DNA from: Candidatus Atabeyarchaeum deiterrae
GTDB taxonomy: Archaea > Asgardarchaeota > Atabeyarchaeia > Atabeyarchaeales > Atabeyarchaeaceae
DNA: 64,000 nt
Assembly (NCBI GenBank): GCA_037310415.1
Contig: CP147780.1
Coordinates: 1,056,001-1,120,000, forward strand
Direction of reading: 5' to 3'
A program made the position numbers and the translations under genes. Below are positions 23,614 to 61,243 of the stretch, one piece after another (position 1 is the stretch's first letter; every line of letters begins with the position of its first letter). The notes under the pieces are model-generated. The model made no database searches. It was given only the letters and a program-made list of their open reading frames with translations, and was not told the origin of the DNA.

Positions 23614-23985
23614 CTATTGGCTGCTCTCCAAACGGCTCACGTAGTCTCTGTGATCGAGCATCGCTCTTATGGCTAGTGCTGCCGTCTGAGGTTCCTCGTA
23701 TACCGGGATGCCACCTTCTTGCCTAAGGTACCGCAAGACCCTGCTATCTTCATTGGCATGTATCGTTAATCCGATTATTGGCTTTCCGTATCTATGCTTA
23801 AGTTCCGCAAGCAGTTTGGCTTCATCCAGTTCTCGTTTTGTTCCCATCTCCGTTATGATCGTATCTTCTAAGACAACGGTGAAAGCTTCGAGTAACCCGA
23901 CACCTATGACTATCACGCAATCTATGTAGCCTTCTTTGAGAAGCGTTTCGGCGCATGTAGACACAACGCCTTCCCCGAAGGCTCC
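23614..23985 (-). pseudogene. Orphan 3' fragment (123 codons) of the acetate-CoA ligase alpha gene; left boundary of the island
   Basis: 96/111 aa identical to the C-terminus of 59789..61243 from GAFG onward; similarity stops abruptly at 23985. Confidence 0.92.
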
Positions 23986-24290
23986 GTTTTTGTTTGAGGA
24001 GCATTTTCTCGGCTCGGTTTTGTTTTTCCGCATTTTCTTTTGGTTCTTCACGCGCGTGAAATGCATGTTTTCTTGGGTGGTATTTGAAGTCCACGCGGGG
24101 CATTTTTCGGTGGTGCATTCTACGGTGCCGTAGACTGTTTTGCATGATTCTTCGGATTCTGTCTGGTTTTGCGTTTTTGTTGCAGTTTCGGTCTTGTTTT
24201 GCATTTTTCGGTGGTTCTCATAGCTTCTCCTTGCACGGATCTGTGGGTCGGCAGACGTGTGGAGTTTTGGCTCGGGGCCCGTGGTCGCCT
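23986..24290 (+). other. A-poor, T/G-rich non-coding tract with palindromes and a 15-nt direct repeat
   Basis: About 30 A in 305 nt by hand count; palindrome TTCACGCGCGTGAA (24047-24060); hairpin TCTACGG-tg-CCGTAGA (24119-24134); GCATTTTTCGGTGGT at 24100 and 24201. Confidence 0.75.
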
Positions 24291-24397
24291 TGTTAATGGG
24301 ATCGAAAGTATTGAATCTTGCGATCTTCAACAGACTTAAATACGTGGAATGTTGGAAGTATTTTCAATGCTAAAATTAGGAGGGTGAGAGAGGAAAA

Positions 24398-25075
24398 ATG
24401 TTGAAGCGTTCTAGTCGTCTAGCTTTGATAGTGGTTACGACTATTCTCGTTTTTTCGCTTTCGTTTGCAATGTCCGCTCGACCAGTGTCTGCGGGTCAGA
24501 CGTTCATTAATTCGGTTCGATTTGGGAATGATTTTGGTTACGGAAGGATCAACGTCGATCTCTACCGCCAAGGTACTGGATACAGTTTCAAGGTGACATT
24601 CTACTACGAGATATGGGTGTGCACAGACGTACGTTACTACCCCCAAACGGGACATATAGACAACCTGAGGCTGGGGGTCGACACTTGCAACGCGGCGCAC
24701 ACGCAATGGTACCACCAGCTATATTCTGGATTAGTGATGTTGACTGGGGTAGTTAACCAGTATTTTGAAATTGGTGGTACGCAGGTTGCCACTAAGTATC
24801 ATGATGGTGTGAAGTATACAGTCTACTACGGGACAGTGATCTTTGGACCGACCTATAATCCGTACAGTGGACAATACATCAACGCCTACATGATGTGGGG
24901 TGCATGGAATATCAACATGATATATTTCGAAATCATTGTGAGTATGAATTATGCCGAGCTTGCGAAAGATCAGAATGCGTTAATAATGGACTATTTCCGA
25001 GATCTGTACTCGAACGCGTACCAAGTTACGTACTTCCCGGACGTATTCTTCTTAGCTAACCCGCCCTGGCAATGA
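24398..25075 (+). CDS. Secreted Tyr/Gly-rich protein of unknown function
   Basis: Signal peptide MLKRSSRLALIVV..PVSA; GGAGGGTGA RBS; T-tract downstream. Confidence 0.75.
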   Translation: MLKRSSRLALIVVTTILVFSLSFAMSARPVSAGQTFINSVRFGNDFGYGRINVDLYRQGTGYSFKVTFYYEIWVCTDVRYYPQTGHIDNLRLGVDTCNAAHTQWYHQLYSGLVMLTGVVNQYFEIGGTQVATKYHDGVKYTVYYGTVIFGPTYNPYSGQYINAYMMWGAWNINMIYFEIIVSMNYAELAKDQNALIMDYFRDLYSNAYQVTYFPDVFFLANPPWQ

Positions 25076-25127
25076 ACACGCCGCAAATAAGTCGATTAGC
25101 ATAATCGAAACAAAGAGAGTCTGGAGT

Positions 25128-25148
25128 ATCTTCTCTTTTTCTTTTTTT
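25128..25148 (+). terminator. Oligo-T archaeal terminator candidate
   Basis: tcttctcttttcttttttt about 55 nt after the stop codon. Confidence 0.45.
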
Positions 25149-25526
25149 GGGTCTTCTTAAGACCGTATTGATTCTACGATAGTCGGAGAAGAGTTAGGTG
25201 ATGAGAGGACTTCTAGTGTTAACTGAGGGTATGTTCAACAATGCAGGTTGCGCCAGGTCAGGAATTCGTGGAGAAGTATGTTGAGAGGATGAATTCTCCT
25301 TGTAGTGTTTGAACTCTTGATTGCTGCTCTCTATTTTGCATTTAGAGGGGTAAGCTAACTAGTTTTGCCCTGGTGTTCTTGGGGCGTTTTTGGCGCTTGC
25401 TCTTCTTGGCTTGCCAGTTGCTTCTGTTAGAAGCGTTTGTCTGGAGTGCACTTTGTTCGTGGGACTATTTTTCTCTTGTTTACGTCCATCTGAGGCGACT
25501 TACCCTTAGTTTTTTTGTTTTGGCTC

Positions 25527-25696
25527 GGCGCCCTATGCCTTCGCCCTAAAAGAACAAGTGGCGTATGTTCGGATAACGTTCCACGTGCGCCTACTTTGTT
25601 CTTTTCCCCCTCGCCTCTCGGCTCGGGGTCGGGCTCAGGCAGGGCGCCTCGCAGTGTACGGTCAAATCACCTCTCTCTTTCGTTCGAGGTGATTTG
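25527..25696 (+). ncRNA. Structured leader: branched stem-loop plus RBS-sequestering hairpin
   Basis: Stems 25527-34/25641-48, 25548-57/25596-605, 25560-68/25583-91 (two G-U pairs), a side hairpin at 25607-28, and a perfect 11-bp stem 25663-73/25686-96. Confidence 0.65.
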
Positions 25697-25697
25697 C

Positions 25698-26828
25698 TTG
25701 TACAATAATGATGATTGTTCTCGTGGCTGTGGTTCCTTTGGGCGTCGAAGGTATTCGTTGAGGGTTGATGCTCTTTCCGCTGAGGAGTGGGCTTATCTTC
25801 GTGGCTTGTACCTCGCTGATGGGACTAAGCGTGTTACCTTCTGTCTTGGTGGAGATGAGGTGGAGTTGTCGCTGAAGCTTGTTGATATGCTAAACCGCGC
25901 TGGGTTGAAGCCGATTGTGAAGAAGGATCCAGATGAAGAAATGTTGCTTGTGTCCGCGTGGTCGTTGAGTCTCCTTGAGTTTCTGGGGCGCAAAGGCACT
26001 CTGCTGCATGATGTTGAGGCGCGGAGGAGGTTCTTCGAGGAGAACAGGCTGATGAGTGTTGGGCTGGGTGTTCCCTTCATTGCGGGTCTGATAGACGGTG
26101 ACGGCTTCTGTCAGGTGAGTGTTGTTGATGAGCTTGGTCCCTTCGGCAAGGTGAACAGGTGGAGGTGGGGGTTTGCTCAGAAGAAGTTGCCGTTTCTCCT
26201 CGACTACTTCAGGGAGTTCGTTGAGTCTCTCGCACTCAAGAGCGTAAGGATTCGTGTAATGAGGAATGGCGTAGTTGTTGCAGAGATTTGTCAGGCTGGC
26301 ATCAAGGCTCTACTCAAGGCTGGCATAGCCTCCCACTCAGTGAAGGCGAACCAGTGGGTGAAGAGGGTGGAGGAGCTTGACAAAACGAGTAGGCGAGTGA
26401 GCTATTTGACTTCTAATGAGGTTGCCGAGAAGCTGAGAGTAAGTAAGCCAACCGTGTGGCGCTGGCTCAAAACTGGAAAGATGCGATGTGCCCAGTGGAC
26501 TGCGAGGAGGCTGAAGAACGGCAAGGAGACCTATCTGTCGCATCGTTACATCCATGCGGAGGAAGTTGAGCGCGTGAGGTATGAACTTGAAGAGGAAAGA
26601 GCGCTATTGAAACAAGTCAGGGAAGATGGATACGTCAAGTTCAATGATGTGGCTAGAGTTTTGAACGTTCCGAAAACCACTCTGCGACGGTGGTTTCGGA
26701 GCGGAAGAGTGCAAGTTACATTAGTCCGAGGGCGCAATAGAGACCGCGGGTACTGGATGCCGAGGAAGGACGTTGAGCGCCTCAAGCGCCGGGTCCGCAA
26801 GTCTGAAGACTTTTTGAAACGTCGCTGA
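25698..26828 (+). CDS. Double-motif LAGLIDADG endonuclease-family protein with two C-terminal excisionase/MerR-type HTH domains
   Basis: AYLRGLYLADG and FIAGLIDGDG; YLTSNEVAEKLRVSKPTVWRWLKTG and VKFNDVARVLNVPKTTLRRWFRSG; TTG start after GAGGTGA. Confidence 0.85.
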   Translation: MYNNDDCSRGCGSFGRRRYSLRVDALSAEEWAYLRGLYLADGTKRVTFCLGGDEVELSLKLVDMLNRAGLKPIVKKDPDEEMLLVSAWSLSLLEFLGRKGTLLHDVEARRRFFEENRLMSVGLGVPFIAGLIDGDGFCQVSVVDELGPFGKVNRWRWGFAQKKLPFLLDYFREFVESLALKSVRIRVMRNGVVVAEICQAGIKALLKAGIASHSVKANQWVKRVEELDKTSRRVSYLTSNEVAEKLRVSKPTVWRWLKTGKMRCAQWTARRLKNGKETYLSHRYIHAEEVERVRYELEEERALLKQVREDGYVKFNDVARVLNVPKTTLRRWFRSGRVQVTLVRGRNRDRGYWMPRKDVERLKRRVRKSEDFLKRR

Positions 26829-27234
26829 GAATGTTGCACGGCAGATGCAACATGCTGCTAGTCGCTATCAACGCGTCTGGCTTGATGGGGTTTGTGGCTC
26901 CTATCTCCAGAAGTGTCCTTATACACCAGAATCATTGGATTTGTGAGCTTCTCGCACATTTTGACCAATACCAGAACTTGTTTTGTGAAAGACCAAGACT
27001 ACACAGAGAAGCTGAACAAGTTACGATGCTGGTTCAGAAAGTGCTCCAGAGTTTTGCGTAATGAAGTATTCTGGTCAATATGATACGAACTAGTTGCATA
27101 TTGCGAGTTTTCTGATTGGATTATGATTGGGATCATTTATAGATATGCAGGTTTATAGAGGATTGATTAGTCATTTCCTAGATGCTTGGCAATAGCGCAT
27201 TTAACATATCATCTGGTGATGGTACTACTGAACT

Positions 27235-28590
27235 TTGAATAGTGGTGGTGTGCAGATCGGAATGGGAGATTCTTCTCTAGCTTCCCAAAGTGGCCCTTGT
27301 ATGGAATTGATAGTGATCTCGCCAGAGCCTGCAATGTTTGAAAGGACAATCATGGTTGACACAAACTATTTGATGCAGGTCAATCAGGAAGACATTATGG
27401 AGATGTTGTTCAACCCTTGCTACGAGGACAAGTTTACTGAAGCTAGCAAACTGATAAAGAAGCAAATGATAAAACTGCTTCGAGACGTTGTCAACCGCAA
27501 ACTTGACTTATGTTTTACAAACCACATTGCAAGGGAATTTGTGTGTCGGCAATGCATGAAAAAAGGTCTAATCAAGATCTACATGAAGTACATTACGGTT
27601 TTGACCCCGAGAGAGGCATTTGAATCTGAGTTCTTGAACGTCTCTGCAGCCATCAATTCTCAAATCCCAGACCCTTTGGGAAAGGGTGAGATTAACGACA
27701 CGTATTCTTATATTCTGGCAGCATTGGCAGGATCGAAGTATTTTGTGACTGAGGACAAGCACGTTACGTCAATCTACAAGTATCTGGCTGGTATCAGAGA
27801 AGGAGATTCAAACCTCAAAGCCAAAGAAATCAAAAACGTGAACGAGACGTACAAGATACTCAATTCACAAGAAACTGCATTCCCGATCGATGATGTTCTC
27901 AAGGCGCTTTTTGGAGATCTTGGGTCATTGCCTGTTCCAATCAAGATTGGGAGCCTGGGGGATAGCTTGCCAAACGTATTGGATAAGGAGGATGTTTTAG
28001 TACGAATTCTCCGGTTTCTGCAAGAGATTGGTCACCTAAGGGCAAGTTCCGCGAAGGTCCCAGATGGTTGGGACGAATCGCTTGTAGAAAAGTCAAGACT
28101 GCGGATTTCGGCCGTGGCTAAATCAGTAGGCATATCAGATTTCGAAAAAGTAGATCCTAGTCGTTTTGGTGCGAAACTTAGGGAGAGAATTGCAGACTGG
28201 ACAGGAGAACCTTCGGATCAGCAATTGGCAGAGGATCTCGGCGGCAAGGTTAGTGATCTGCGGGCCATCATGTACAAGGAGGAGGTGGGATACATGGATT
28301 GGGAGGATCAGTTCTCTGCCGAGGAACCTGTGAAGGAGTTCAAGGTTGAATGCGGGAACTGTCGGAGCCATGTCGAGTTGGAGGCTTATTATGACGGCGT
28401 CGTAGAAGTTGATGATAGGGAGATGGGTACAGAGAACCTTCATGAGTGGTCTGGTGAAATTGAATGTCCATCGTGTGGGAATCTGTTGGAGGTTGTCTAT
28501 AGAGTTTGGGAATATCCTGTGATGTGTTTCAACACTGATGAGACAGAGTGCGAAGGCTGCAAATTGCTACCTGAGAAGAAATCAAGCTAG
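27235..28590 (+). CDS. PIN-domain protein with C-terminal Zn ribbon (start possibly later)
   Basis: IMVDTN..E..EINDTY..FVTEDKH acidic PIN pattern; CGNC..REMGTE..CPSCG..WEYP. Confidence 0.65.
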   Translation: MNSGGVQIGMGDSSLASQSGPCMELIVISPEPAMFERTIMVDTNYLMQVNQEDIMEMLFNPCYEDKFTEASKLIKKQMIKLLRDVVNRKLDLCFTNHIAREFVCRQCMKKGLIKIYMKYITVLTPREAFESEFLNVSAAINSQIPDPLGKGEINDTYSYILAALAGSKYFVTEDKHVTSIYKYLAGIREGDSNLKAKEIKNVNETYKILNSQETAFPIDDVLKALFGDLGSLPVPIKIGSLGDSLPNVLDKEDVLVRILRFLQEIGHLRASSAKVPDGWDESLVEKSRLRISAVAKSVGISDFEKVDPSRFGAKLRERIADWTGEPSDQQLAEDLGGKVSDLRAIMYKEEVGYMDWEDQFSAEEPVKEFKVECGNCRSHVELEAYYDGVVEVDDREMGTENLHEWSGEIECPSCGNLLEVVYRVWEYPVMCFNTDETECEGCKLLPEKKSS

Positions 28591-30618
28591 TAATTGATGG
28601 ATAATCTTTCGAGATTCAGCGGAAAGCTTTCGCCATTCTGCAATCGCTCGGGCGAACGGCGATACGACTCTTATTCCTTTCTCAAGAAACATCAGTCTGT
28701 TAGCATCGGAAATATCTGAAAAGACGACAAGATAAGGAGCAATTGTCTTGTCTTCCCTAGACTTTTGTAAGGCATTGATCTTGTTCGCTGTCTGCTTAAT
28801 CGTTTTTTCGATTTCGCCCACATGTAGTTTTACCTTACATTCGTAGAAGTCAACCGTCTTTCCATCGATTTTCTCGGCAAGAACATCAATCTGCTCACCC
28901 TCCTCTTGCGTGTCACATCTTACCGATGCATACATGCTGCCTTTTTCCTCCACCAGCCAATCAAAGAACAGGTACTCGAAGAACTTGCCCTTAAGATTGC
29001 CTAGCGTGTCTTCGGTTCTCGCTTTGAGTTCAAGCAAGTTGAGCCTTCGCAATTGATCCATCTCAGCTATTCTGTCAGGAATGTTTATCTCAGTCTCTTC
29101 GTAGACTACCGTTTCAAAGACAGATGACACGCTTCGTTTTCCCAGATACTCCCTAAAGATCTCGTTGTCCACCTCTATCTCCCTGACTTCTATCAGATTC
29201 CGCTTTTCATAGCTATTCAGCAGGCTCTTAGCTTTCCTATATGATGTGATGCCAAATCCTGAATAGTCACAGGCACAGTCGAAAAATACCAGCCAACCTG
29301 AATAGTCGGAGATGCCAAGGCTACTAACAGCCTCAATCAGAATGCAATAGCTGTAATCGTATTCCTTCCTCCCCTTTTCACCTACTGGGTGCTTAAATAC
29401 TCTTATCTGAACTTTCTCAATCATATGCTCCAGCTTACGCTGTTCTACAACTCCCATCACCAAAGGGACAAATGCTGGAACACCATTGAAGACCGTGAGT
29501 TCTTGGGCATCCAAAACATTGACTTCGTACCAAAGCAAATAGTAGTTTAACTGCTTCATCACTGAAGCCTTATCTGTCTTATGCATGTAGTCAGGGTCTG
29601 TCAATCCTTTTGGTTTCAGCAGTTCACCGAATTCTTTCTTGTCAAAGCTTTCTGAGAGGACCAATATATTGTCATCAGCTCCGCGAACTGCTAGCTGATT
29701 CTCGAGGGGCAGAGATATCTCATTGTTTATCCTGTCAAAGTATCCGTCAAAAACATACCAACTTTTTCGCTCCGGGTGTCTTTCTTCACGGCGTTGAACA
29801 CTCTTCTTCCCGCTACTCGTAAGAGAGGGATCCAGCTTATGCAAATCCACGAGACAACTTTTTCCATATTGCTCTTTCCCGACTAGTCTATACCAGAGAT
29901 ATTGGAGAGCGTAGACATAGCCTGCATAGGCGCTCTTCAAAAACTGTTCTTCAGTAACGGGGTTCAGAACTGTCGCAGCGAGCTGACCTTTGGGAAAGCC
30001 ACGTTTAGTGTCATTTAGGTCTATTAGCGTATAGGCGATCGTTGAGACTTTGAGCGCTTGACTTTCAGTGACGTTCTCAACGGCAGAAATAACATGAGGC
30101 ATAACAACCTGACTTATCGAATCAAGAAAAGCAAGTAAATGCTTCGTTGAGGTTTCGAACTGTTGCCACTCCTCTGATTCCCTAATCCCTCTCGCGGCTT
30201 TCCAGATTCTCTTTATGAAGATTGTCTTTTCACAGGTGTTAGGTATATCATTTAGTGGGATACCAGTGAACCTTGCTCTGAAGAACGTATAGTCCTCAGT
30301 CAGATCCAAACCGGTTCCCATAGTGACTGAACGAATTAGGCACCTTACGCAAGTATCAACCAGAAACCTATAGCCAGCGAGCAGCTCATGCTCATCCTCA
30401 ATTCCATGGTATTCTTTCAACCAGCCTCTGAATGCTTGGGTTCCTAACGCGATCCTCAGGACACTCAACCACGCTAGAAACTCTCCAATCGCATTTGTGA
30501 ACACGGTCGCGTCGCTATTATCTTTTTTCAAAATGCAGTCCCCAATATCAAGATGACTGGGCGATTTTCCTAAATATATGTTGCATATGTCTGATTGGGG
30601 ACGCCTGAACGAAGTCAC
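28582..30618 (-). CDS. Large protein with C-terminal PD-(D/E)XK restriction-endonuclease-like domain
   Basis: KGKFFE..QIDVLA..FYECK; N-terminal ~530 aa not recognised. Confidence 0.7.
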   Translation of the reverse strand: MTSFRRPQSDICNIYLGKSPSHLDIGDCILKKDNSDATVFTNAIGEFLAWLSVLRIALGTQAFRGWLKEYHGIEDEHELLAGYRFLVDTCVRCLIRSVTMGTGLDLTEDYTFFRARFTGIPLNDIPNTCEKTIFIKRIWKAARGIRESEEWQQFETSTKHLLAFLDSISQVVMPHVISAVENVTESQALKVSTIAYTLIDLNDTKRGFPKGQLAATVLNPVTEEQFLKSAYAGYVYALQYLWYRLVGKEQYGKSCLVDLHKLDPSLTSSGKKSVQRREERHPERKSWYVFDGYFDRINNEISLPLENQLAVRGADDNILVLSESFDKKEFGELLKPKGLTDPDYMHKTDKASVMKQLNYYLLWYEVNVLDAQELTVFNGVPAFVPLVMGVVEQRKLEHMIEKVQIRVFKHPVGEKGRKEYDYSYCILIEAVSSLGISDYSGWLVFFDCACDYSGFGITSYRKAKSLLNSYEKRNLIEVREIEVDNEIFREYLGKRSVSSVFETVVYEETEINIPDRIAEMDQLRRLNLLELKARTEDTLGNLKGKFFEYLFFDWLVEEKGSMYASVRCDTQEEGEQIDVLAEKIDGKTVDFYECKVKLHVGEIEKTIKQTANKINALQKSREDKTIAPYLVVFSDISDANRLMFLEKGIRVVSPFARAIAEWRKLSAESRKIIHQLLA

Positions 30619-30680
30619 CTTTTAAGTGTCCAGTTCTGTGCAAGAAGTCGTCAACACATTTGCGGCGAAAGCCCAAGGGG

Positions 30681-30860
30681 GAGTGTTTCCAGTTGATGAG
30701 TGCCAAGCAAGTTGTTGCCTTGTGCCATCTCTTGTATGAAGCGTTATGCTGGCGTGTCAGTGGTAGCAGTATGTAGTCCATGTGGACAGGCAAGTGGCGC
30801 TACACTCTCACAACCAAAGTTAAGCGCCTCAGACGCAAGCTGTGTAGGTCTGTCGACTGC
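30681..30860 (+). pseudogene. Degenerate excisionase-type HTH remnant resembling the LAGLIDADG-HTH C-terminus
   Basis: Reads LMSAKQVVALCHLLYEALCWRVSGSSM*SMWTGKWRYTLTTKVKRLRRKL, with TAG at 30774. Confidence 0.65.
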
Positions 30861-31082
30861 CATGAATGCTGTGGAGATGTTCGGTGGTGCATCCAACACA
30901 TGACTTATTTCTTGGCGCGCTGCATGTGCGTTGTGACCATCAAGGAAAATAGAGCGAATAGTTGTGGGAGTCGACGAACGATCGACAAGCCGAGGTAGCT
31001 TCGATAGAGGATCCTCAGAAGGCGGTGTTGTCTAGCCACTTGTGGCATCGCAATATTCTTATTAGCTGCTCCTGCGACATAT

Positions 31083-31844
31083 TTGTTCATGAATGTTGAG
31101 ACCCTTAAACGGAGAATCACCTCGCTAATTAAAGAATTCCAGAAGGTGGAATCAGCGGTCCGCGCCTGGGAAAAGCGAGGCAGTTTGGCTAAGTCATTAG
31201 CCAGGGTTCTTTACTATATTGGCGAACCGTACAAACCTGAGCCAAGAGTTCGCACCAGTCCCACGCTTTATGCCAAACTCAAGGACATTATTGATAACTC
31301 GTTGAAGTTGCTGCCAGACAACAAACAGTATTTGCTTACTTCATGGAACCAGTGGCGGCGCAGTGTTGGAGAGGATGATGTCGATTCGTTGGACTCTACT
31401 CAACTTGGAGACGGAATAAAAATTCTCGACGATATTTCGGAGTTCGAAAAGAAGTCTGAAGAGAAGAAGGCTCCGCCTTCACCGAGCAGAGTCATACGCG
31501 AATGTGGAGGACTCATCGATCCGCAACTTTACGAGCTTTGTGCAGGGAAGGATTACCACGATGTGGTGACGAACGCCTTCACAGTCTTGGAGGACAGGAT
31601 ACGCAGCAAAGCGGGGCTTGACCCAAGCCACACTGGAACCAAGTTGATGGACGAGGTATTCAATCCTTCAACTGGACTACTTGTTTCTGGATCGACTCAC
31701 AATGAACGTGAATTTTTTTACTTGATTTTCCGCGGGGCTCACGGGTTTCTTCGCAATCCACCATCTCATCGCATCACAGGCGGCGAATCTGAGATTGAGC
31801 CAGTCGAAGTGATGTGTTTGGTGGATTACCCCTCAAAATCCTGA
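31083..31844 (+). CDS. TIGR02391-family protein, probably frameshifted near the 3' end
   Basis: YHDVVTNAFTVLEDRIR..GTKLMDEVF..FRGAHGFLRNPPSH; terminal helix breaks at ~31830. Confidence 0.75.
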   Translation: MFMNVETLKRRITSLIKEFQKVESAVRAWEKRGSLAKSLARVLYYIGEPYKPEPRVRTSPTLYAKLKDIIDNSLKLLPDNKQYLLTSWNQWRRSVGEDDVDSLDSTQLGDGIKILDDISEFEKKSEEKKAPPSPSRVIRECGGLIDPQLYELCAGKDYHDVVTNAFTVLEDRIRSKAGLDPSHTGTKLMDEVFNPSTGLLVSGSTHNEREFFYLIFRGAHGFLRNPPSHRITGGESEIEPVEVMCLVDYPSKS

Positions 31845-31976
31845 TGAGAGCATCAATTCGGAAATAATGAGTTTCTCGATGTCGCGTAATTCAGCAAGGC
31901 AGGTGGCAGTTTTGGAGGAGAAGGGAGCCTCGATTGCATCATGGAATTGAAAGGTTCGCTAGAGGAGTGTTAAAAG

Positions 31977-32888: not shown

Positions 32889-33013
32889 CGTCTTGTCTAG
32901 TCAAGGTGGTTTCTTGTCCCAATCGCTTCTCATTCTAGGGATTGCTATTCCTATCCGCAAGACCTGTCCCGAGAGTGCCTTGTCTAATTGTTAAACGAGG
33001 TCGCTGCTGGTCG

Positions 33014-33694
33014 CTACTTCAATTCAACAAAACTGAAGAACAGATGATGAATACGAAACGGGGAGCGATCCTTCTCCCTTAAGTGCGTCGAGACGTAATG
33101 TTCCCTAAAAGCAGAAACGGAAGATGCCAAAGTCATGACTTCTACTATTCTTTCTTTATCAACTCGAGTCTTTATTTCTTTGACTATTACGGCAATCCTC
33201 CCAGTATTAATATAGCCAATCAATGAGCCGACTGTGCCATTTGCACAGTACCTCCCTTCAATATAGCGATACAACCCCTGCTTAATGTATTCCCTATAGC
33301 TTCTACTGTTGCCCTCGGCTAACAGTTTGCATTCGAAACCAAAAAACGCCTCTTTTTCCCAACGATCCCTAAAACAAAAATCGATGGTTGGTGGTTTTCC
33401 TCTATCCTTAGCGTGCTCTCGATCAATCTTTTGATTTATGGGGACAACAGCCGGTGGGACGCTGGATGCAGACCAAGCAATATTGACCTCTTTAAAAAGC
33501 TCTTCGGTGATTTCGTCCTCTGACATTTGTGGTTTGACTATGCGATTTCTATACAAGGTAGTGTATGCTTCGCAAACGATTTCGAGAAGTCTGGTGATGC
33601 CCTTGTCCCCTAGATGCTTAGCAAGGTCAAAAGGGCTGCCGGTTCTGTAACCTTCTTGCAGAGAGTCATAAGTCATTGACAATTGCTTCCCCAT
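33014..33694 (-). CDS. PD-(D/E)XK nuclease partner of the adjacent methyltransferase
   Basis: EDEIT..TIDFCF..FECKLL..YIKQGL; overlaps the MTase stop. Confidence 0.7.
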   Translation of the reverse strand: MGKQLSMTYDSLQEGYRTGSPFDLAKHLGDKGITRLLEIVCEAYTTLYRNRIVKPQMSEDEITEELFKEVNIAWSASSVPPAVVPINQKIDREHAKDRGKPPTIDFCFRDRWEKEAFFGFECKLLAEGNSRSYREYIKQGLYRYIEGRYCANGTVGSLIGYINTGRIAVIVKEIKTRVDKERIVEVMTLASSVSAFREHYVSTHLREKDRSPFRIHHLFFSFVELK

Positions 33695-37644: not shown

Positions 37645-37656
37645 TCCCCCTTTCTG

Positions 37657-54096: not shown

Positions 54097-54239
54097 CCAT
54101 ACTGATAGATCTTGAGGTGCTTTTCAGCCGCCAGTTGCGGAGCCGGTGGACTGCTCTGATGCGTAAAAGACTTTAAGCATTCCTAGGTAGAATCATGTTG
54201 AAAAAGGCTTGATTACTCCTTCTATGGCAGCATTGAAGT

Positions 54240-54701
54240 TTATTCCTGCGTGGCCGCCAGCTTTTTTCGCATAAATGACTCGTACTCCACAGCTGTCAGA
54301 TACTGCCCAGCCATTGTGATTGGCTTATGGTATGCAACCGGTTCCGAGTACTTCCTTAGTTCGTTTAGCACCAGCGTTAGTACTTCCTTTGATGGGGCTC
54401 GCGTAGGCGAGTTCTTGACATAGGCAAGGAACTCGGCTTCGCTCAGAAAGAGCTTCTCCCTATACCTAGTGATAACGCTGTCAGGGGTCAGAAACTCAAC
54501 TCTCACGATAGTGCCTTCGCCGACCAGCTTTTTTGTTCCTCTAGATGCATAGAATATGACCTTGTTCTTTGGTCGTAATCTGGTGAAGTTGCGAGGAAGG
54601 AACTTGGCGAAAACCTTGGTTCCTCCATCGAAAAGCCTGTCAATGAGGCGGTCTGGGACTGGATATATTACTCCAACTATACGATGCATCGCGCTCTCCA
54701 A
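54240..54701 (-). CDS. DUF365 / PUA(EVE/ASCH)-like domain protein
   Basis: GVIYPVP..IDRLF..KVIFYAS..LVGEGTI..TMAGQYLT. Confidence 0.75.
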   Translation of the reverse strand: MESAMHRIVGVIYPVPDRLIDRLFDGGTKVFAKFLPRNFTRLRPKNKVIFYASRGTKKLVGEGTIVRVEFLTPDSVITRYREKLFLSEAEFLAYVKNSPTRAPSKEVLTLVLNELRKYSEPVAYHKPITMAGQYLTAVEYESFMRKKLAATQE

Positions 54702-54936
54702 GGACTTTTCGATTCCTCCAGATGATTATTGGCGAGGTGAAAGATGAACTGATGAATCCATGTTGGCGTTTTCTTGGCCCTGTCGAATGGAAGGCTTCCA
54801 CCGATATTAGGTCAACTCGATCAATTAAGCATTGTCTCATGATTTCTCTAGGTCAAGGAGCGAGGAGGAGATAGCTGGGGGTTTTTAGTGCCTCGTTGGG
54901 AACATACTCAAGTAGTGGCTTCGAGGATGAAGACTC

Positions 54937-57900
54937 TTGGGGTTAGAGAATCGTGTGAAGTTTCGTTGGCTTGCTTGGAGAAAGAGGGTTGTTGTTGTTC
55001 TATTTGTCGGTGTTATGGCCCTCCTCTTGCTGTTGAGATTCTTCGGTGAAGCGATATCGAGGGCTCTCTCTTCTGTACTTCCTAGTGCCGTTTCAATTTT
55101 TGCTCAACTCATCGCACCCACTATCATTGCCAGCTTCATGATCTTTTTAGTCGTTTTCGTTAGAAGAGGTTCAGGATTGTTCCTCCGCCGGAAGCGAACC
55201 TATAATATTGGCGGCCTCGCTATATCGGCTCTTGAGTTGCTGAGTGTTCCCAGTGAAAGTGTCAGGCAACGGGTTAGAGGCGCCGTATCGAGAGACGAAC
55301 AAGAGGATGGTGCTGCGGTGAGCGATGAGAGGCAGTACCAGTTCAGTCACCTAGCAAGTTTGTTTGAGAAGAATGGGTCTAAACGTGTAGGAAATGGTGG
55401 AGGCTTGGGATACGAGATCCACTTCAAGAACGGACTCATAGGCGTGGATTTCGTGGTGACTGGTCAGGACACAGAGGAGTGTAAAAGAAGAAGGGAGCAG
55501 ATTGAGGCAAGTTTGCTGAGTAAGTTTCCTGTTCAACTCATGGAGGTGAGAAGAGAACATCTCGTGGACCTTGCGTTGATGGGGTTCGTGGAGAAAGCTA
55601 ACTACAGAGGAACGGTTGAAGTTCTGGCAGTAGACAACAGAATCGCCCAGGTTGTCTCTGGTGGGCGATCCCGCTATCTTGGGGTCGTCGCTCTCATGGG
55701 TCGCCCCGAGATGAGCGCCCACGAACAGCGTTGTCAGATTGACCAGTTCATAACTGGTATTAACAGCGCATTGAGGTTTGGTCGCGGCGGTGAAGAGAGA
55801 GGTGAAGTGCGCTTTGTTGTCTCATTTGAGGCTTCAAACCCTCCTAAGCACCCCAGTGATGCGTCGTTGAGGGAGAAGTTGCGGGAGAAGCCCGATGTAA
55901 GGTTGAGTCTGGCACGAAAAAAGGTTGAAGTTGAGGCAATGGAGATTGAGTTCGGTCAGCGCGTAGGATGGTGGAAGGTCTCCACATATGTAGTCGTGGT
56001 GAGCGACAGCCTTGGCCTTGTCAAGCAGAAGCTTGAGTCGGTAAGAAGTGTCTTGAGAAGTGTTTGGAGTGGCAGCCACTTCTCGCCAGTTAGCAGTTTT
56101 CTTCATGGTAAAGAGATTGTAGCGTACCTTCCCCGTATCATGCGGAGAGTTCTCCTTCCAAGGAGATACGTGACCGGGATGAGCAGCCTAAGATTGAGTT
56201 CTCTGGTTCACATACCCGAGGAGCCGCATCCGCCTCTGACTAGGATGACCGCGCCTCTCTTTGAGGCACCTGACCCGTCAGTGATTATCGGCAGCAACCA
56301 TGTTGACGTTATCACGCTGGGGGATGTTCTCAATTCTACTGGTGGAGCGTTGTACCCCCTAACTGTTCCCGTGCGTGTGTTAGGCACTCACGCTGTTGTG
56401 TTCGGCGAGACAGGTTCAGGGAAAACCTGCCATATTATCAGTTTGTTATGGGATATGACTGGAGGAAACGAGGCTAATGGGGCTGAAAATGAGCTTGGCT
56501 CCCGTATTCCCTTTCTCGTACTCGATCAGAAAGGAGAGTACCGCTGCCTCATTCGACCTGAGAGGGGAATAATCTATTTCTTGCCTGGGTCTCGCCTTGC
56601 TCCCCTTTTGATAAACTTGTTCGACCCCCAAGGTGATGAGCCTGAGAGTCACGCGAAGCGCATTTTCAACATTATCAGGGAGATCTTATTCACAAACCGA
56701 ACTGAACTCACTCCGCAGATGGAGCGCGTGCTCTACGATGTTCTCAGTATGTCTATTGGGGGCGACTGGGACAAGTTTAACGCGAATCTAGCAGAGTATC
56801 TTACTCTGCACGGAGAAGAGTTGCCTCAACTAGGCGCGACTATCCAAGGGATACTTAACAGAGTGGGGCAGTTCACTCGACCACCCCTCTCCCAAGTGTT
56901 CAACTGCAGAGAAAGCAACGTGAACTTCAACCACCTTGTCCAGCGCAACGCCATAATTGATCTTAGTGAACTTCGAAGGCAGGGCACGCCTGAAGATGTT
57001 CGGTTGCTAGCCAACATCATTGGCAAGTATGTTAGCGTTGCGTCGTTGAACAGGGGCCCTGACTTCAGTGGTCAGCTGAGACACCTGTTCGTTGTGGACG
57101 ATGCCCTCGATGTGGTGCCTGAGGTGCTTGCGAAGAAGACTACCGCCGACGTGGGAACAATCGAGTACATGGCTATGCTTCTTCGAGCGACGGGTCAAGG
57201 CTTGATCGTGGTGTCGCAAAGACCTAACATAGCAGAGAACGTGATCGGGAACAGCGGTGTAAAGTTGTTCTTCAGGACCGTGGTGGACAGTAGGGATGTG
57301 GCTGCTTGGATAAACCTGTCCGAGGAGCAGCAAGCATACCTTAAGGTGTTGCCGAGGCAGGAAGCGATCATCATGGTTCCCCAGCACCCTGCGCCGATGC
57401 GGATTCGGGTCCAAGATGTCAGCACCTTCGTAAGTAGAAAGGTTACCGATCGCGACATAACTGTTAACAACATGATCAACTACCCGCTCATGTATGACAT
57501 GTGGGGAGAAGAGGTGGGAAGGCAAAGCAGTGAAAATAAGCTGGAGCCATCGCGGTTGCACAGTGGGGAGAACTCACTCTTGGAAAGTGAAACAGTCGGG
57601 GTCAAAACGGCAGAAGCAGTCTTGGAAGAGGAATGCGTTGGGAAAGCGACGAAAGGGGAGGACGGTGACGAATGCGAGGAAGATAAGGTTTGCAGGCTAA
57701 ATGCAGATAGCCGTGAGGCTTGGGGAAAACTAAGCCCATGTCTAGCGGACGGACTTGCCGTTGACAGCGAGTTTGTTTCCCGTATTCTCGGCGTGTCGTC
57801 GAAGGTTGCTCACCGCATGATGCTCATGCTCAAATCCGCCGGTCTAATTGTGGTTGCGAAGATACCCAACTACGCATACGGTAAGGGTTTCCAGTACGCG

Positions 57901-59121
57901 TACTACGTGCCGAAGAAGGGAACATATGGTAGTGGCATAGTAGCGTACGTTCGTGAGAAGATCTACAGCGAGGTGACCAGCAGGGAAGCGCTGGCTGAGT
58001 TGCAACCCAAGGGGATGAACAGCGCAGACATGATCATCCAATACATGTATCCTCTCATTATTCAATTAGCTGGCGAGAGCAGCTCCGTGTTGTCAGTGTT
58101 GAGAGATAGAATAGGGAGAGCGGCAGAGGAATTCGCTTCTACTAGGGGAAGACTACTCTCCGACACGGGCAGAGACATCGAGACTAAGGTTGTTGTTGTC
58201 ACCTTGTGGAGCAGCATCGCTAAGAAACTTGAGGAAGCGCGCCGAAGAGGCGAACTAGGCAGAGACTGCTTATGTGTCTTGGCCTTCAATAGGCGAACCA
58301 TGTCTCTCCTCGCAGACTATGTACTTCACCATATACAGCTTGGAATCCTGACGGGGGAAGGAGAGGACGGAGCGGATGAAGGTAAGACAAGACTTGAGAA
58401 AGACGATTCGAGTCGACTGGAGGCATCGGATGAAGCAGGATCGGGAACTGGAGACATTGAAAATGAGAATAAGAGGTTGATTAGGAATAGGGTCTTGGCG
58501 GTTGTCAAAGAGTCTGGGGGCATTGAGCCTCATGCGGTTGCTGAGAAACTTGGCGTACGTCTGCCTAGAGTCAGCGAGGTTGCCAAGAGTTTGAGGGACG
58601 AGGGATTAATCAAGGTTGCGAGGAATATCCCATTCATCTCCTCGCTCAAGAAAAGTAACGCAGTCTTCTATCTTGACGCAGCGAGACCGACGGTTCTCCA
58701 CGACACGCTTATGAATGAGATTTGGAGGTGGAACTCCGAGTTGGGAGGTCGCTGTAGGGACTACGGCTTTGAGTATGGTGGGAAGACTTGGTGCACGGAT
58801 GGCTTGCTTGAGAACAGAGGTGGCAGCTTCATACTTGAGGTAGTTGCTGGCGACTACGAGGAGAGGATTGTTGAGCAGCTTCAAGCGTACTCCGGCAAGG
58901 TTGGCTACATGGGGATCAAGGGGATAGTAGTAGTTTTCTTGGTTATTGATTGTCTTGTTAGGGTGAGAGAGGAGATTGCGGCTAGTGAGATTGCTCTTCA
59001 CAATGTAGAGCTTCTTACTACACTTCGTTCTAGAGAGGAGAAACTTCAATTCAAGTCACTGCTATTGCATGGGCGTACTATGTCTTATCATAGAAATCAT
59101 GATGCGATCAAGAGAAGCTGA
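54937..59121 (+). CDS. Membrane-anchored HerA/FtsK/coupling-protein-like ATPase (DUF87-type) with C-terminal wHTH and nuclease-fold modules
   Basis: 2 N-terminal TMs; HAVVFGETGSGKT, LDQKGEY, VVDDA and LRATG..VSQRP; two wHTH segments; HDTL..TDG..LEV..Y tail. Confidence 0.8.
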   Translation: MGLENRVKFRWLAWRKRVVVVLFVGVMALLLLLRFFGEAISRALSSVLPSAVSIFAQLIAPTIIASFMIFLVVFVRRGSGLFLRRKRTYNIGGLAISALELLSVPSESVRQRVRGAVSRDEQEDGAAVSDERQYQFSHLASLFEKNGSKRVGNGGGLGYEIHFKNGLIGVDFVVTGQDTEECKRRREQIEASLLSKFPVQLMEVRREHLVDLALMGFVEKANYRGTVEVLAVDNRIAQVVSGGRSRYLGVVALMGRPEMSAHEQRCQIDQFITGINSALRFGRGGEERGEVRFVVSFEASNPPKHPSDASLREKLREKPDVRLSLARKKVEVEAMEIEFGQRVGWWKVSTYVVVVSDSLGLVKQKLESVRSVLRSVWSGSHFSPVSSFLHGKEIVAYLPRIMRRVLLPRRYVTGMSSLRLSSLVHIPEEPHPPLTRMTAPLFEAPDPSVIIGSNHVDVITLGDVLNSTGGALYPLTVPVRVLGTHAVVFGETGSGKTCHIISLLWDMTGGNEANGAENELGSRIPFLVLDQKGEYRCLIRPERGIIYFLPGSRLAPLLINLFDPQGDEPESHAKRIFNIIREILFTNRTELTPQMERVLYDVLSMSIGGDWDKFNANLAEYLTLHGEELPQLGATIQGILNRVGQFTRPPLSQVFNCRESNVNFNHLVQRNAIIDLSELRRQGTPEDVRLLANIIGKYVSVASLNRGPDFSGQLRHLFVVDDALDVVPEVLAKKTTADVGTIEYMAMLLRATGQGLIVVSQRPNIAENVIGNSGVKLFFRTVVDSRDVAAWINLSEEQQAYLKVLPRQEAIIMVPQHPAPMRIRVQDVSTFVSRKVTDRDITVNNMINYPLMYDMWGEEVGRQSSENKLEPSRLHSGENSLLESETVGVKTAEAVLEEECVGKATKGEDGDECEEDKVCRLNADSREAWGKLSPCLADGLAVDSEFVSRILGVSSKVAHRMMLMLKSAGLIVVAKIPNYAYGKGFQYAYYVPKKGTYGSGIVAYVREKIYSEVTSREALAELQPKGMNSADMIIQYMYPLIIQLAGESSSVLSVLRDRIGRAAEEFASTRGRLLSDTGRDIETKVVVVTLWSSIAKKLEEARRRGELGRDCLCVLAFNRRTMSLLADYVLHHIQLGILTGEGEDGADEGKTRLEKDDSSRLEASDEAGSGTGDIENENKRLIRNRVLAVVKESGGIEPHAVAEKLGVRLPRVSEVAKSLRDEGLIKVARNIPFISSLKKSNAVFYLDAARPTVLHDTLMNEIWRWNSELGGRCRDYGFEYGGKTWCTDGLLENRGGSFILEVVAGDYEERIVEQLQAYSGKVGYMGIKGIVVVFLVIDCLVRVREEIAASEIALHNVELLTTLRSREEKLQFKSLLLHGRTMSYHRNHDAIKRS

Positions 59122-59139
59122 CTAAGATCTTGTTGCTTC

Positions 59140-59221
59140 CTATTGTTGTCTAACACGTTTCAATTCGTTTGTGCAATTCAGCATCGCCCTTATTGCCTGA
59201 GCTGCCATCTGAGGGTCCTCG
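59140..59221 (-). pseudogene. Third, 27-codon orphan acdA 3' tail
   Basis: EDPQMAAQAIRAMLNCTNELKRVRQQ*; 59180-59221 is 36/42 nt identical to 59841-59882 and 35/42 to 23657-23698. Confidence 0.88.
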
Positions 59222-59307
59222 GAACTGAGGGACTTCTCTCCCCTGGAACCTAGCCATATTCCTGTAAGATTATCGAGTGGAAAACTTAAGAAGGTTCAGC
59301 CGATCAC

Positions 59308-59772
59308 GTGACTATCGTTTCCTTGGAGCGGAGGCTTCCGATCTTGGACGAAGTTGCAGGAGCAACACTTATCCTGGCTTTTGTTACATTTCTATTGGTT
59401 GTTGTGTCTATAATTGACACGAGCAGAATATTGAAAGATGACCGAAAAGGCAGGCAGATCAAGTGGGTCGAGCACAGAATAGCCGAACTCTACTATCCGC
59501 TGAATCATAACATGGGCGACTCGATTACTCTTTACGCTTTCATGCCTTCAATAGAGAACAAGCTCTACTTGGCTGAACCTGACCTCAGGAAGGCACTGGA
59601 GGAATTCAGAAACTCCAATATAAGCATCCGAACAATTGGCGGAATGCTCACAGGGGAGATCTTGGAAAACGAGGAACATGTCAGAGACTTGAATAGGGTA
59701 ATCAAGAATCTAGTAAAATCACAGCTGGAAGGTCTTCAAGGACAACTTGACAACTTGACGGGCGCGAAGTAG
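59308..59772 (+). CDS. Single-TM membrane protein (single-gene cassette)
   Basis: N-terminal hydrophobic helix followed by a helical domain containing ELYYPL. Confidence 0.7.
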   Translation: MTIVSLERRLPILDEVAGATLILAFVTFLLVVVSIIDTSRILKDDRKGRQIKWVEHRIAELYYPLNHNMGDSITLYAFMPSIENKLYLAEPDLRKALEEFRNSNISIRTIGGMLTGEILENEEHVRDLNRVIKNLVKSQLEGLQGQLDNLTGAK

Positions 59773-59788
59773 GAAGTACACCCTGGAG

Positions 59789-61243
59789 CTATTGATGTGC
59801 TACCACTAGGGGGATGCGCTCCAAGTAGCTTTTGTAGTCGAGCATTGCCCTTATCGCCTGAGCCGCTGTCTGAGGATCCTCGTATACTGGGATGCCCCCC
59901 TCTTGTCTGAGATAGCGCAGAACCCTGCTATCTTGATTGGCATATATTGTCAATCCTACTATCGGTTTGCCGTACTTTTGCTTGAGTCCAGCGAGTGCTT
60001 TCGCTTCATCTAGTTCCCTCTTGGTTCCCATCTCTGTCATGATAGTGTCTTCCAGGACAAGGGTGAAGGCTTCCAGCAACCCTACGCCTATGACTATCAC
60101 GGCGTCAATGTAATCTTGTTTTAGAAGCGTTTCCGTACACGTTGACACTACACCTTCACCGAAGGCGCCATCGGTCAAATCAGCGGGATTAGCATGACTC
60201 CAGTACGTCGGAAGGATCTTATTCAATGTTTCAATAGCATCCTTTTTGAGTGGAGGAACTTTAAGGTTCAGGTGATCAGCTTGATCCATGAATTGTACGC
60301 CGACGCCTCCACCGAACGTTACGATCCCTATGTTAGGTCCGTGGGGAATCGGTTGGGTTGAGAAAGCTATTGCTAGATCAAACATTCTAGAAACACTATC
60401 AGCACGTATTGCTCCGCTCGCTTTGAAAGCTGCCGAAACAATTCTATCTGAACCCGCAAGCGTTCCGACATGTGATGCGACGACTTTCTGGCTCGTTTCT
60501 CCTGTTCCTGCTTTCATAACTAGAACCGGTTTTCTTAAGGAAGCCTGCTTCACCGTCTCCATGTATTTTCTGCCATCTCTGAGGCCTTCAAAATAAGTCA
60601 TGATTACCTTCGTTGTAGGGTCATGCGTGTAGTATTCAATGATGTCGGATAAGTCTAGGTTGGCTGAGTCCCCTACGTTAACAAACTTGCTTAGACCCAT
60701 TCGGCGCCGATACGTTAATCCGTGTACGATAACTCCGGGGCTCCCACCTTGTGACACAAACGCGATATTGCCGGGAAGAGGTCTTATGGGACCGAGCAAG
60801 GCTGAGAAGCTTGAGGATGCGCTATACACGCCGTTGCAATTAGGGCCAGTGAAGCGGATCCCACCCTTTCTGGCTATTCGTACGACCTCATGTTCCAGCT
60901 CTGAACCTGACTCTCCAATTTCGCTAAACCCAGCAGAGATAACAATGGCTGCTTTCACGTTCTGTGAGACGCAATCCTCCATTGTCTCTGGCACGAATTT
61001 CGCTGGAAGGGTGAAGATTGCGCAGTCAATATAGTCCTTTATCTGACTGACTCTATTGACTGTTTCAAGTTTCAATATCTTTGAAGTTGCGTTAGAGTTC
61101 ACGAGATAGACTCTGCCTTTGAATCCCCCATTCACAATATTCTTTATCAAAAAACCACTGACACTGATGGGATCTCTCGACGCGCCAATGCACGCCACAA
61201 CCTTCGGGTTGAACAATGGTTCAAGTTCCTCAAAGATACCCAA
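59789..61243 (-). CDS. acdA: Acetate/acyl-CoA ligase (ADP-forming) alpha subunit
   Basis: LFNPKVVACIGAS, ISAGFSE, GPNCNG, SQGG, ASHVG (phospho-His) and NPADLT. Confidence 0.9.
   Translation of the reverse strand: MGIFEELEPLFNPKVVACIGASRDPISVSGFLIKNIVNGGFKGRVYLVNSNATSKILKLETVNRVSQIKDYIDCAIFTLPAKFVPETMEDCVSQNVKAAIVISAGFSEIGESGSELEHEVVRIARKGGIRFTGPNCNGVYSASSSFSALLGPIRPLPGNIAFVSQGGSPGVIVHGLTYRRRMGLSKFVNVGDSANLDLSDIIEYYTHDPTTKVIMTYFEGLRDGRKYMETVKQASLRKPVLVMKAGTGETSQKVVASHVGTLAGSDRIVSAAFKASGAIRADSVSRMFDLAIAFSTQPIPHGPNIGIVTFGGGVGVQFMDQADHLNLKVPPLKKDAIETLNKILPTYWSHANPADLTDGAFGEGVVSTCTETLLKQDYIDAVIVIGVGLLEAFTLVLEDTIMTEMGTKRELDEAKALAGLKQKYGKPIVGLTIYANQDSRVLRYLRQEGGIPVYEDPQTAAQAIRAMLDYKSYLERIPLVVAHQ

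Follow-up and report, generated by a model that had tools for sequence, protein, structure and literature searches.

What places 36 kb of unrelated genes between two host genes when none of those genes encodes a recognisable integrase or transposase? The question is raised by an island lying between the HMG-CoA synthase (HMGCS) gene (22357-23400, minus strand) and the intact ADP-forming acetyl-CoA synthetase gene acdA in a 64,000-nt stretch (G000:C1:1056001-1120000, here called the window) of the complete 2.76-Mb genome of an Atabeyarchaeia (Asgard) archaeon, of the kind treated in PMC11529989. The island is best explained as a large representative of a family of mobile elements that occur in Atabeyarchaeia without an encoded integrase or transposase, each built around a gene that combines two LAGLIDADG motifs with helix-turn-helix (HTH) domains. 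By analogy with the mobile open reading frames (ORFs) of fungal mitochondria, its insertion would have occurred by nuclease-initiated, homology-dependent replacement of a gene end, scaled up to carry cargo, and to this reading we assign a probability of about 0.6. The window was compared with two genomes, the complete sister genome of Atabeyarchaeia-1 (G001) and LC30 (G002), a metagenome-assembled genome of the same genus as Atabeyarchaeia-1. The public runs that contain the stretch are wetland and freshwater-sediment metagenomes.

Three kinds of diverged partial duplicate punctuate the island, namely, 3' ends (tails) of acdA, tails of the LAGLIDADG-HTH gene and the start of the leader that precedes that gene. 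A preliminary description of this DNA had pointed to all three, and they proved to be real, both by sequence matches and by collinearity with LC30. The window contains one whole acdA of 484 aa, whose last 120 codons are repeated on the other side of the island, beside the HMGCS gene. This orphan (tail B) matched the intact gene with 77.6% nucleotide identity over 348 nt (23638-23985 versus 59822-60169) and with 82% amino acid identity over 120 codons. A further fragment (tail C) was 83 to 86% identical to both other acdA tails at 59180-59221, and its match reached about 59288 when gaps were allowed; its downstream flank matched the junction between acdA and the ATPase gene of LC30.

The corresponding empty site was found in Atabeyarchaeia-1, which is collinear with positions 4-23424 of the window, with full synteny on the left, and in which the HMGCS gene then leads directly into an intact acdA. 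The site is occupied in LC30. On its contig C49, only some 25 nt at most separate acdA from the end of a gene homologous to the ATPase gene at the right end of the island, and its contig C107 carries a 119-codon acdA orphan that begins, like tail B, at the GAFGEG boundary and is adjoined by a terminus homologous to 23989-24114 of the window. As judged from these matches, the same element family sits at the same acdA site in two genera.

The two acdA ends of LC30 form a reciprocal mosaic. Before position 245 of the 360-nt duplicate, Atabeyarchaeia-1 agreed 39 times with the full LC30 copy and 12 times with the orphan, whereas after that position it agreed 23 times with the orphan and 4 times with the full copy (Fisher test, 2e-7 at the best cut). 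This reciprocity indicates that DNA was exchanged at an internal point of the duplicate. Thus, two thirds of the LC30 orphan, from its start, are foreign and the remaining third is native; in the full LC30 acdA it is the final ~115 nt that are foreign. The outer GAFGEG boundary is the element's own and does not mark the exchange. That boundary is common to the window and LC30 and is accompanied by a homologous element terminus; on this comparison, it was inherited with the element. Tail C starts in the same zone near position 245 as the LC30 exchange, which indicates that the insert carrying the 154-aa ORF (ORF154) used that zone as well. The preliminary description had stated that the breakpoints differ between copies. 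The copies do have different 5' ends, but the relatives point to fixed exchange points, the zone near position 245 in acdA and a single core in the LAGLIDADG-HTH gene. From the mosaic and the start of tail C, the two acdA breakpoints originally noted are one inherited boundary and one exchange zone.

For every tail pair that could be scored, orphans included, dN/dS was 0.01 to 0.14, with changes that were almost only silent, which indicates that the tail pieces diverged while within working genes. Both acdA orphans (window 23614-24330, minus strand, and G002:C107:900-1256) are open frames of 119 to 120 codons, with dN/dS values of 0.04 to 0.14 against working genes; they may have been orphaned recently, have been refreshed by exchange with working copies or still be translated.

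The second anchor is the LAGLIDADG-HTH gene itself. Its product fits the pattern of a monomeric two-motif LAGLIDADG endonuclease, with two helices that each have a conserved acidic end. The acidic residues of both motifs were invariant in all 10 aligned homologues (D41/G42 and D133-G134-D135-G136 of alignment A4), and the closest solved proteins were I-DmoI, I-CreI and PI-SceI. Near the end of the gene, at 26772, lies an 18-nt core, GTTGAGCGCCTCAAGCGC, of which there are further same-strand copies at 40318 (1 mismatch), 30819 (3 mismatches) and 37689 (4 mismatches). With up to 3 mismatches allowed, three matches were found in the window against 0.04 expected, with only 5 others in the 2.76-Mb genome (both strands). 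A degenerate pattern, itself derived from the four copies, occurred four times in the genome, always in the window and on the plus strand. Each copy is followed after about 45 nt by a hairpin (ATGTT...AACAT) that shows compensatory changes between copies. The weakest of them, at 37689, is backed by a GAACTTA continuation that is common to the copy at 40318 and to the tails of real orthologous genes.

Two such orthologues (L083 and L084, on short metagenome contigs; 81% nucleotide identity) are homologous to the window gene only as far as 26786-26788, within the core, and continue with a GAACTTA tail that matches the orphans at 40318 (92%) and 37689 (89%). The sequence after the tail differed in all three contigs. 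This comparison indicates that the tail of the window gene has been replaced at the core, with the older type surviving downstream. The orphan tails retain only about 20 to 40 nt upstream of the core, and three chance truncations so close together are not expected. The self-tBLASTx comparison put forward in the preliminary description recovered the acdA tails but missed these, as did blastn-short; pattern and covariance-model searches were needed to detect them. With the tail model, further orphan tails were found at three places only, in Atabeyarchaeia-1 at 1652.9 and 1654.5 kb, flanking a 396-aa gene, and at 409 kb, and in LC30 on contig C204. In a scan of 25 loci with the tail model and with the genes' own tails against their flanks, no additional array was found behind intact genes, and there was none behind 16 other LAGLIDADG-HTH copies.

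A motif shared by the acdA exchange zone and the LAGLIDADG core (GTT..GCGC..CTCAGAC in the window acdA) was missing from the other acdA copies and was taken as chance. The exchange zone of the window acdA (within 59813-60172) reads GTTCTGCGCTATCTCAGAC and resembles the core variant GTTAAGCGCCTCAGAC of the LAGLIDADG tail at 30819, probably by coincidence.

A chimeric assembly was rejected as the origin of the duplicates, because the junctions at 23988, 30819, 37689 and 40318 are bridged by contigs that Logan assembled independently from run X3, possibly the source sample itself, and because the paper describing these genomes calls them complete (PMC11529989). In the contigs of four public runs aligned to 22000-41999, no empty site, circle or alternative cassette order was seen, and two odd joints (24034 to 25517 and 25696 to 26758) were paralogous copies from other organisms. 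The contigs of run X7 covered the left flank and a 90 to 95% identical gene and left the cargo blocks uncovered; contigs cannot prove absence.

The left end of the island is likewise shared with relatives. The left-end module matched the island end on LC30 contig C107 (72% over 188 nt), the match running across the tail boundary, and it also matched the regions upstream of leader-bearing copies on LC30 contigs C169 and C202 and at 2.556 Mb of its own genome. Positions 23985-24293 are collinear with the upstream module, the promoter and the first ~30 nt of the leader of an LC30 copy, so that position 24264 is a real displaced leader start. About five copies of GCATTTT(C) lie at 23989-24263, beside the acdA orphan, and are kept on LC30 contigs C107, C169 and C202 and at 2.557 Mb of the window genome; as candidate repeats, they could bind a protein.

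The leader, of ~200 nt, precedes one subfamily of LAGLIDADG-HTH genes and is 77 to 94% identical in nucleotide sequence between copies, whereas the proteins that follow are only about 40% identical. Its consensus fold has 47 pairs, arranged in a 25-bp long hairpin, two more hairpins and a middle segment of variable length, and the G-U pairs indicate that the sense (plus) strand folds. A covariance model gave 9 matches in the three genomes: window 25517-25715, G000:C1:2557023-2557248, G000:C1:40000-40145, G001:C1:110625-110841 and the LC30 contigs C17, C169, C198, C202 and C221. Rfam returned no match to the leader and nothing in the window at gathering thresholds. The leader is a candidate for regulation of the nuclease, for a protein-binding RNA or for a role in mobility.

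Table 1. Features of the island and of related insertions (window positions unless another genome is named; identities are between the two duplicates)
Feature	Position	Strand	Remarks
Orphan acdA tail B	23629..23988	-	120 codons, open frame; adjoins HMGCS gene; the Atabeyarchaeia-1 equivalent sits in intact acdA beside HMGCS
Conserved element terminus (left-end module)	23989..24263	+	GCATTTT(C) repeats and displaced leader promoter
Displaced first ~30 nt of leader	24264..24293	+	16/17 nt match to 25517-25533; spacing to left-end module as in G002:C169
1.25-kb block inserted in leader	24294..25516	+	225-aa ORF (24398-25075), no Pfam family
Structured leader upstream of LAGLIDADG-HTH	25517..25715	+	Conserved fold
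LAGLIDADG-HTH gene	25689..26828	+	Two LAGLIDADG motifs and two HTH_17 (excisionase-type) domains; Pfam LAGLIDADG_3 plus HTH_17; start as in gene call on L082
Exchange core, current tail and hairpin	26772..26853	+	Core 26772-26789, hairpin 26831-26853
Cargo block 1	26854..30793		ORFs of 451 aa (+) and 678 aa (-), without family
Orphan LAGLIDADG-HTH tail 1	30794..30899	+	Core at 30819, hairpin about 30877-30899
Cargo block 2	30900..37663		Hypoth_Ymh protein, type IIG restriction-modification enzyme (33673-36657), HTH protein, small ORFs
Orphan LAGLIDADG-HTH tail 2	37664..37780	+	Core at 37689, decayed, stop within motif
Cargo block 3	37781..40292		Two membrane proteins
Orphan LAGLIDADG-HTH tail 3	40293..40405	+	Core at 40318 (1 mismatch), hairpin 40373-40395; ancestral tail type
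Defence cargo	40406..54936		SIR2-like, GmrSD/HEC-06, PLD-like, second type IIG-like methyltransferase/restriction enzyme, nSTAND3 NTPase, DUF365, unknown ORFs
1394-aa membrane HerA/FtsK/TrwB-like ATPase	54937..59121	+	C-terminal wHTH modules; Pfam, PADLOC; conserved right terminus of element
acdA tail fragment C	59140..59288	-	Last ~23 codons clear, upstream part decayed
154-aa membrane ORF (ORF154)	59308..59772	+	Carried by nested ~0.6-kb insertion; missing from corresponding LC30 junction
Intact acdA	59789..61243	-	ADP-forming acetyl-CoA synthetase; last 120 codons (59813-60172) are the duplicated part
Insertion L062 (G001)			3' end of peptidase M28 gene; duplicates 125-165 nt, 72%; LAGLIDADG-HTH pseudogene only
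Insertion L064 (G002)			Aminotransferase gene 3' end; duplicates 132 nt, 83%; LAGLIDADG-HTH plus DUF4062-TPR gene
Insertion L066 (G002)			Start of DUF3786 gene; duplicates 37 nt, 84%; LAGLIDADG-HTH plus others
Insertion L061 (G001)			Duplicates 45 nt, 76%; LAGLIDADG-HTH between duplicates

The same arrangement recurs on a smaller scale. LAGLIDADG-HTH copies number 4 to 5 in the window genome, about 7 in Atabeyarchaeia-1 and more than 20 in LC30, many of them pseudogenes, and in the genome collection the gene was essentially confined to these Atabeyarchaeia. Several copies are clean insertions with empty sites in a sister genome; the window genome is empty at the sites of L062, L064, L066, L072 and L076. 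At least four insertions are flanked by diverged direct duplicates of the end of the target gene (Table 1), and LC30 contig C202 carries an orphan of an acd paralogue beside the left-end module. The small elements span 1.25 to 3.3 kb, and LAGLIDADG-HTH is the sole gene common to all of them; no recombinase domain was found in the other ORFs scanned of L064, L066 and L076. The duplicates of acdA and of the small elements are 72 to 84% identical throughout, without a long identical block, although age could have erased an att core.

Atabeyarchaeia-1 has a second defence-type island (G001:C1:1650001-1664000; L045, 1060-13321), with DndB/GmrSD_N-like, HNH, HEPN and Schlafen AlbA_2 genes. It contains the two orphan LAGLIDADG-HTH tails around the 396-aa gene, and no intact LAGLIDADG-HTH gene stands at the head of this array.

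The element would be delimited on the left by the LAGLIDADG-HTH module (terminal repeats, promoter, structured leader, gene, and core with hairpin) and on the right by the gene of the membrane HerA/FtsK-like ATPase. With the two excisionase-type HTH domains as its tether, the two-motif LAGLIDADG nuclease would cut an unoccupied target near a gene end, and the break would be repaired by host homologous recombination from an element-bearing copy. The diverged gene end of the element would then restore the gene and leave the resident end as an orphan. In acdA, the exchange point about 245 nt into the 360-nt duplicate would be the mark of the cut, the long homology on both of its sides would represent the repair arms, and the outer boundary of the duplicate would be a relic travelling with the element. 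The ATPase would act as a DNA mover between cells. Later events of a like kind would account for the 0.6-kb ORF154 insert at acdA, the 1.25-kb block in the leader and the three blocks behind the 18-nt core. Initiation by the LAGLIDADG nuclease is favoured because a nuclease gene, an imported end, a displaced native end and an empty allele together make up the pattern of the fungal mobile ORFs.

Several points can be read directly from the aligned sequences: the insertions and their empty sites, the mosaic, the replacement of a tail at a fixed core and the recurrence of the pattern. They bear out the central proposal of the preliminary description, that cargo arrives with a variant gene end, restores the anchor and displaces the old end: Atabeyarchaeia-1 provides the empty site, LC30 the same element with a reciprocal mosaic, and L083 and L084 lose homology at the core. 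The LAGLIDADG protein, which had been named as a possible initiator, is the best candidate for that part in view of the minimal elements L062, L064 and L066; that it cleaves DNA and starts the process, that repair proceeds by homologous recombination and that the ATPase moves DNA between cells are steps that we infer. The array built up solely cassette by cassette that was originally envisaged was not supported: the bulk of the island is a single large element whose termini are conserved, and comparison of the acdA and LAGLIDADG-HTH loci among relatives yielded the empty site and the tail differences but only rare arrays.

A similar outcome could be reached by a classical integrative element, in which a tyrosine integrase, since lost or supplied in trans by a plasmid or virus, recombines an attP that mimics the gene end with an attB in acdA, as e14 and phage 21 do at icd; smaller mobilisable cassettes would have entered secondary sites, and the LAGLIDADG-HTH genes would be selfish passengers. 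Fixed exchange points agree with such an enzyme, and the orphan tails of Atabeyarchaeia-1 lie in a defence island with a 447-aa tyrosine integrase that has homologues in the window genome, intact at 497 kb and as fragments at 1009 kb near a LAGLIDADG paralogue. As the preliminary description had held, however, the island itself has no recognisable recombinase or transposase: a six-frame PF00589 search of the genome gave three tyrosine recombinase matches, none in the window, and when the main ORFs of the island (about 30 frames) were scanned against Pfam, no domain of a recombinase or transposase was found. The integrase at 497 kb, which is the one intact integrase of a mobile element in the window genome, belongs to the published 7.8-kb iMGE-xvi (PMC11529989), whose att motif, AATTAACTTAT at 490569, is unrelated to the island cores, and its action in trans was therefore rejected; the search for integrases in trans, another suggestion of the preliminary description, thus yielded an enzyme but no fitting site. 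LC30 has more than 20 LAGLIDADG-HTH genes and several ATPase copies, yet no tyrosine recombinase was found there beyond a XerA-like gene and one fragment, and the minimal elements of 1.25 to 3.3 kb hold LAGLIDADG-HTH and no recombinase. Moreover, an integrase has no need of duplicates that are as long as 360 nt, extend to either side of the exchange point and share no more than 72 to 84% identity. We regard an integrase-driven origin as unlikely, though it is the main rival. About 47 kb upstream of the window, a LAGLIDADG-HTH paralogue (1004346-1005248) and a degraded tyrosine integrase (1009195-1010059) are neighbours of an inverted 923-nt repeat whose copies (G000:C1:984207-985125 and 1008293-1009202) are 77% identical.

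The three orphan tails, each with the same core and hairpin, in one orientation and behind a cargo block, invite a different reading, in which the LAGLIDADG-HTH protein is itself a recombinase, perhaps together with the leader RNA, and captures promoter-less or single-gene cassettes at its own 3' core in the manner of an integron, the newest lying nearest the gene. Replacement exactly at the core in the orthologues, the similar pairs of orphans around single genes in Atabeyarchaeia-1 and LC30 and a leader conserved more than the protein would all fit. To our knowledge, however, LAGLIDADG proteins act as nucleases or maturases and never as strand transferases. Furthermore, the 16 other gene copies have no array behind them, the Atabeyarchaeia-1 array has no LAGLIDADG-HTH gene at its head, more than two orphans occur at one locus only, and no attC-like structure was seen beyond a simple hairpin, all of which makes this reading distinctly improbable. 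Somewhat less remote, but still doubtful, is the broader proposal that LAGLIDADG-HTH and its conserved leader RNA constitute a new site-specific DNA insertion system, which would move with cargo of any size into gene ends and also capture blocks at its own 3' core, forming a self-extending platform for defence genes. At the other extreme, no dedicated enzyme would be required if a plasmid carrying host-gene fragments had integrated by a RadA-mediated single crossover (Campbell type), the pattern merely reflecting where homology happened to be. A reciprocal mosaic with homology on both sides is what a single crossover should leave, and the ATPase of the element is plasmid-like. Nevertheless, five or more different target genes show the same architecture, each time with LAGLIDADG-HTH, and separate events share an exchange zone. 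Identity of about 75%, as between these partners, strongly disfavours spontaneous homologous recombination, and the 20 to 50 nt of homology at the LAGLIDADG core are very short for it; plain host recombination is accordingly a very improbable source of the pattern.

Nuclease-initiated end replacement has its own difficulties, and several observations weigh against it. For the window itself, with Atabeyarchaeia-1 as an empty allele from another genus, the hints of a mosaic are weak: in the first 245 nt, identity to Atabeyarchaeia-1 is 75.5% for the full window copy (74% in the rest of the gene) and 79.6% for tail B (against the 74% baseline). A metagenome scan with acdA gave a single 2.3-kb contig that ended just past the gene and did not distinguish the native tail of the window. 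At the LAGLIDADG tail core the homology extends over ~20 to 50 nt, which is short for ordinary homologous recombination, and arrays of orphan tails are rare: among about 30 gene copies, three loci had them, and a fourth may have one orphan. No flanking duplicate was detectable at the insertions L072 and L076. The nuclease role of the LAGLIDADG-HTH protein is deduced from its position, its recurrence and its conserved residues. Finally, the orphan tails of Atabeyarchaeia-1 lie 7 to 8 kb from the 447-aa tyrosine integrase, and a circular Atabeyarchaeia element with membrane proteins of 1,402 and 1,202 aa, possibly related to the island, is reported to encode a tyrosine recombinase (bioRxiv 10.1101/2024.03.22.586370), a report that also speaks for an integrase; an integrase-bearing plasmid might be the ancestor of the ATPase backbone.

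Within the cargo, the type IIG-like methyltransferase/restriction gene, a 279-aa ORF and the nSTAND3 NTPase gene lie head to tail at 47678-54096 and may form one defence operon. The NTPase has about nine 32-aa C-terminal repeats, which are clear in self-tBLASTx. In LC30 (G002:C198:19978-21488; L038, about 1119 in reverse-strand index), a LAGLIDADG-HTH gene is cut after the EVEKLRKK motif in the first of its HTH domains, and at KPDVKLSLARKK an ATPase gene continues the reading frame; a similar stretch in the ATPase, EKLREKPDV, suggests recombination at a short motif.

Integrases, transposases or anonymous hotspots are the usual explanations for large islands, those with defence genes included, and the word LAGLIDADG does not occur in the published survey of mobile elements from Atabeyarchaeia (PMC11529989). 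In three Asgard genomes, the 36-kb island and at least five smaller insertions have nothing in common but a gene for a LAGLIDADG-type nuclease and the diverged duplicates of the target end. Should this nuclease drive insertion, homing would extend beyond introns, inteins and small organellar ORFs to tens of kilobases of cargo in cellular chromosomes, with the target gene kept working. This would add a class of mobile element in archaea, explain part of the integrase-less variable regions in Atabeyarchaeia and provide natural nucleases for which empty target alleles are already known.

Among known systems, e14 and phage 21 at the icd 3' end resemble the island in that the element brings a diverged replacement 3' end and the displaced end is found at the far junction. 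They depend on a tyrosine integrase and a short identical core, whereas the island lacks an integrase, its duplicate extends on both sides of the exchange point, and its minimal relatives carry LAGLIDADG-HTH only. The likeness to integrons, on which the preliminary description had drawn, turned out to be loose. Same-orientation cargo blocks, each ending in a related hairpin site, do lie beside one anchor gene, but there is no IntI beside an attI and no attC (only a hairpin with an 8-bp stem per tail), what is repeated is the coding end of the anchor gene, and arrays are rare, most of the island being otherwise organised. In Rhs/CDI loci, too, displaced gene ends and neighbouring genes pile up downstream of an anchor gene; those are toxin/immunity modules within one gene family, whereas the anchors of the island are a metabolic gene and its own nuclease gene, and the inserted cargo blocks are unrelated.

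Proteins of the WhiA type also have two LAGLIDADG repeats followed by an HTH domain. They have lost the catalytic acidic residues and are single-copy regulators, unlike LAGLIDADG-HTH, which keeps these residues, is present in multiple copies, often decayed, and stands at the borders of insertions. In the intronless homing of T4-like phages, the product of a free-standing nuclease gene cuts alleles that lack the gene, at some distance from the gene's own insertion point, and the gene spreads with co-conversion of the flanks; neither diverged duplicates of gene ends nor large cargo are known to be involved.

The closest parallel is with the mobile ORFs of fungal mitochondria, in which an allele without the ORF is cut by a LAGLIDADG or GIY-YIG nuclease and acquires a copy of the element during repair, leaving duplicates that are 64 to 81% identical, as in atp6 of Allomyces macrogynus and atp6, atp9, cox2 and nad3 of Glomus (PMC3630166). 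Those elements consist of a free-standing endonuclease gene in the 3' part of a host gene, with a foreign C-terminal part fused in frame, the native C-terminal part left downstream and an empty allele in close relatives. In the Atabeyarchaeia we likewise found an endonuclease-family ORF inside the insertion, an imported in-frame C-terminal part, a displaced native end (tail B, the orphan on LC30 contig C107, L062 and L064) and empty alleles. Endonuclease-borne replacement of C-terminal ends is therefore an established principle (PMC3630166) and not the wholly new one that had been suggested, although it has so far been known for small fungal mitochondrial mobile ORFs. The island differs from these in its archaeal chromosome, in the two excisionase-type HTH domains and the structured leader, and in the antisense orientation of the nuclease gene to its target; its family differs in cargo that ranges from none to about 33 kb, including defence systems and a DNA-translocase-like ATPase, in nested insertions and in the targeting of gene starts as well. 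What is new, as far as sequence comparison can tell, is end replacement in an archaeal chromosome, with an HTH-fused nuclease, a leader RNA more conserved than the protein, cargo of up to about 33 kb with defence systems, and nested insertions at fixed cores.

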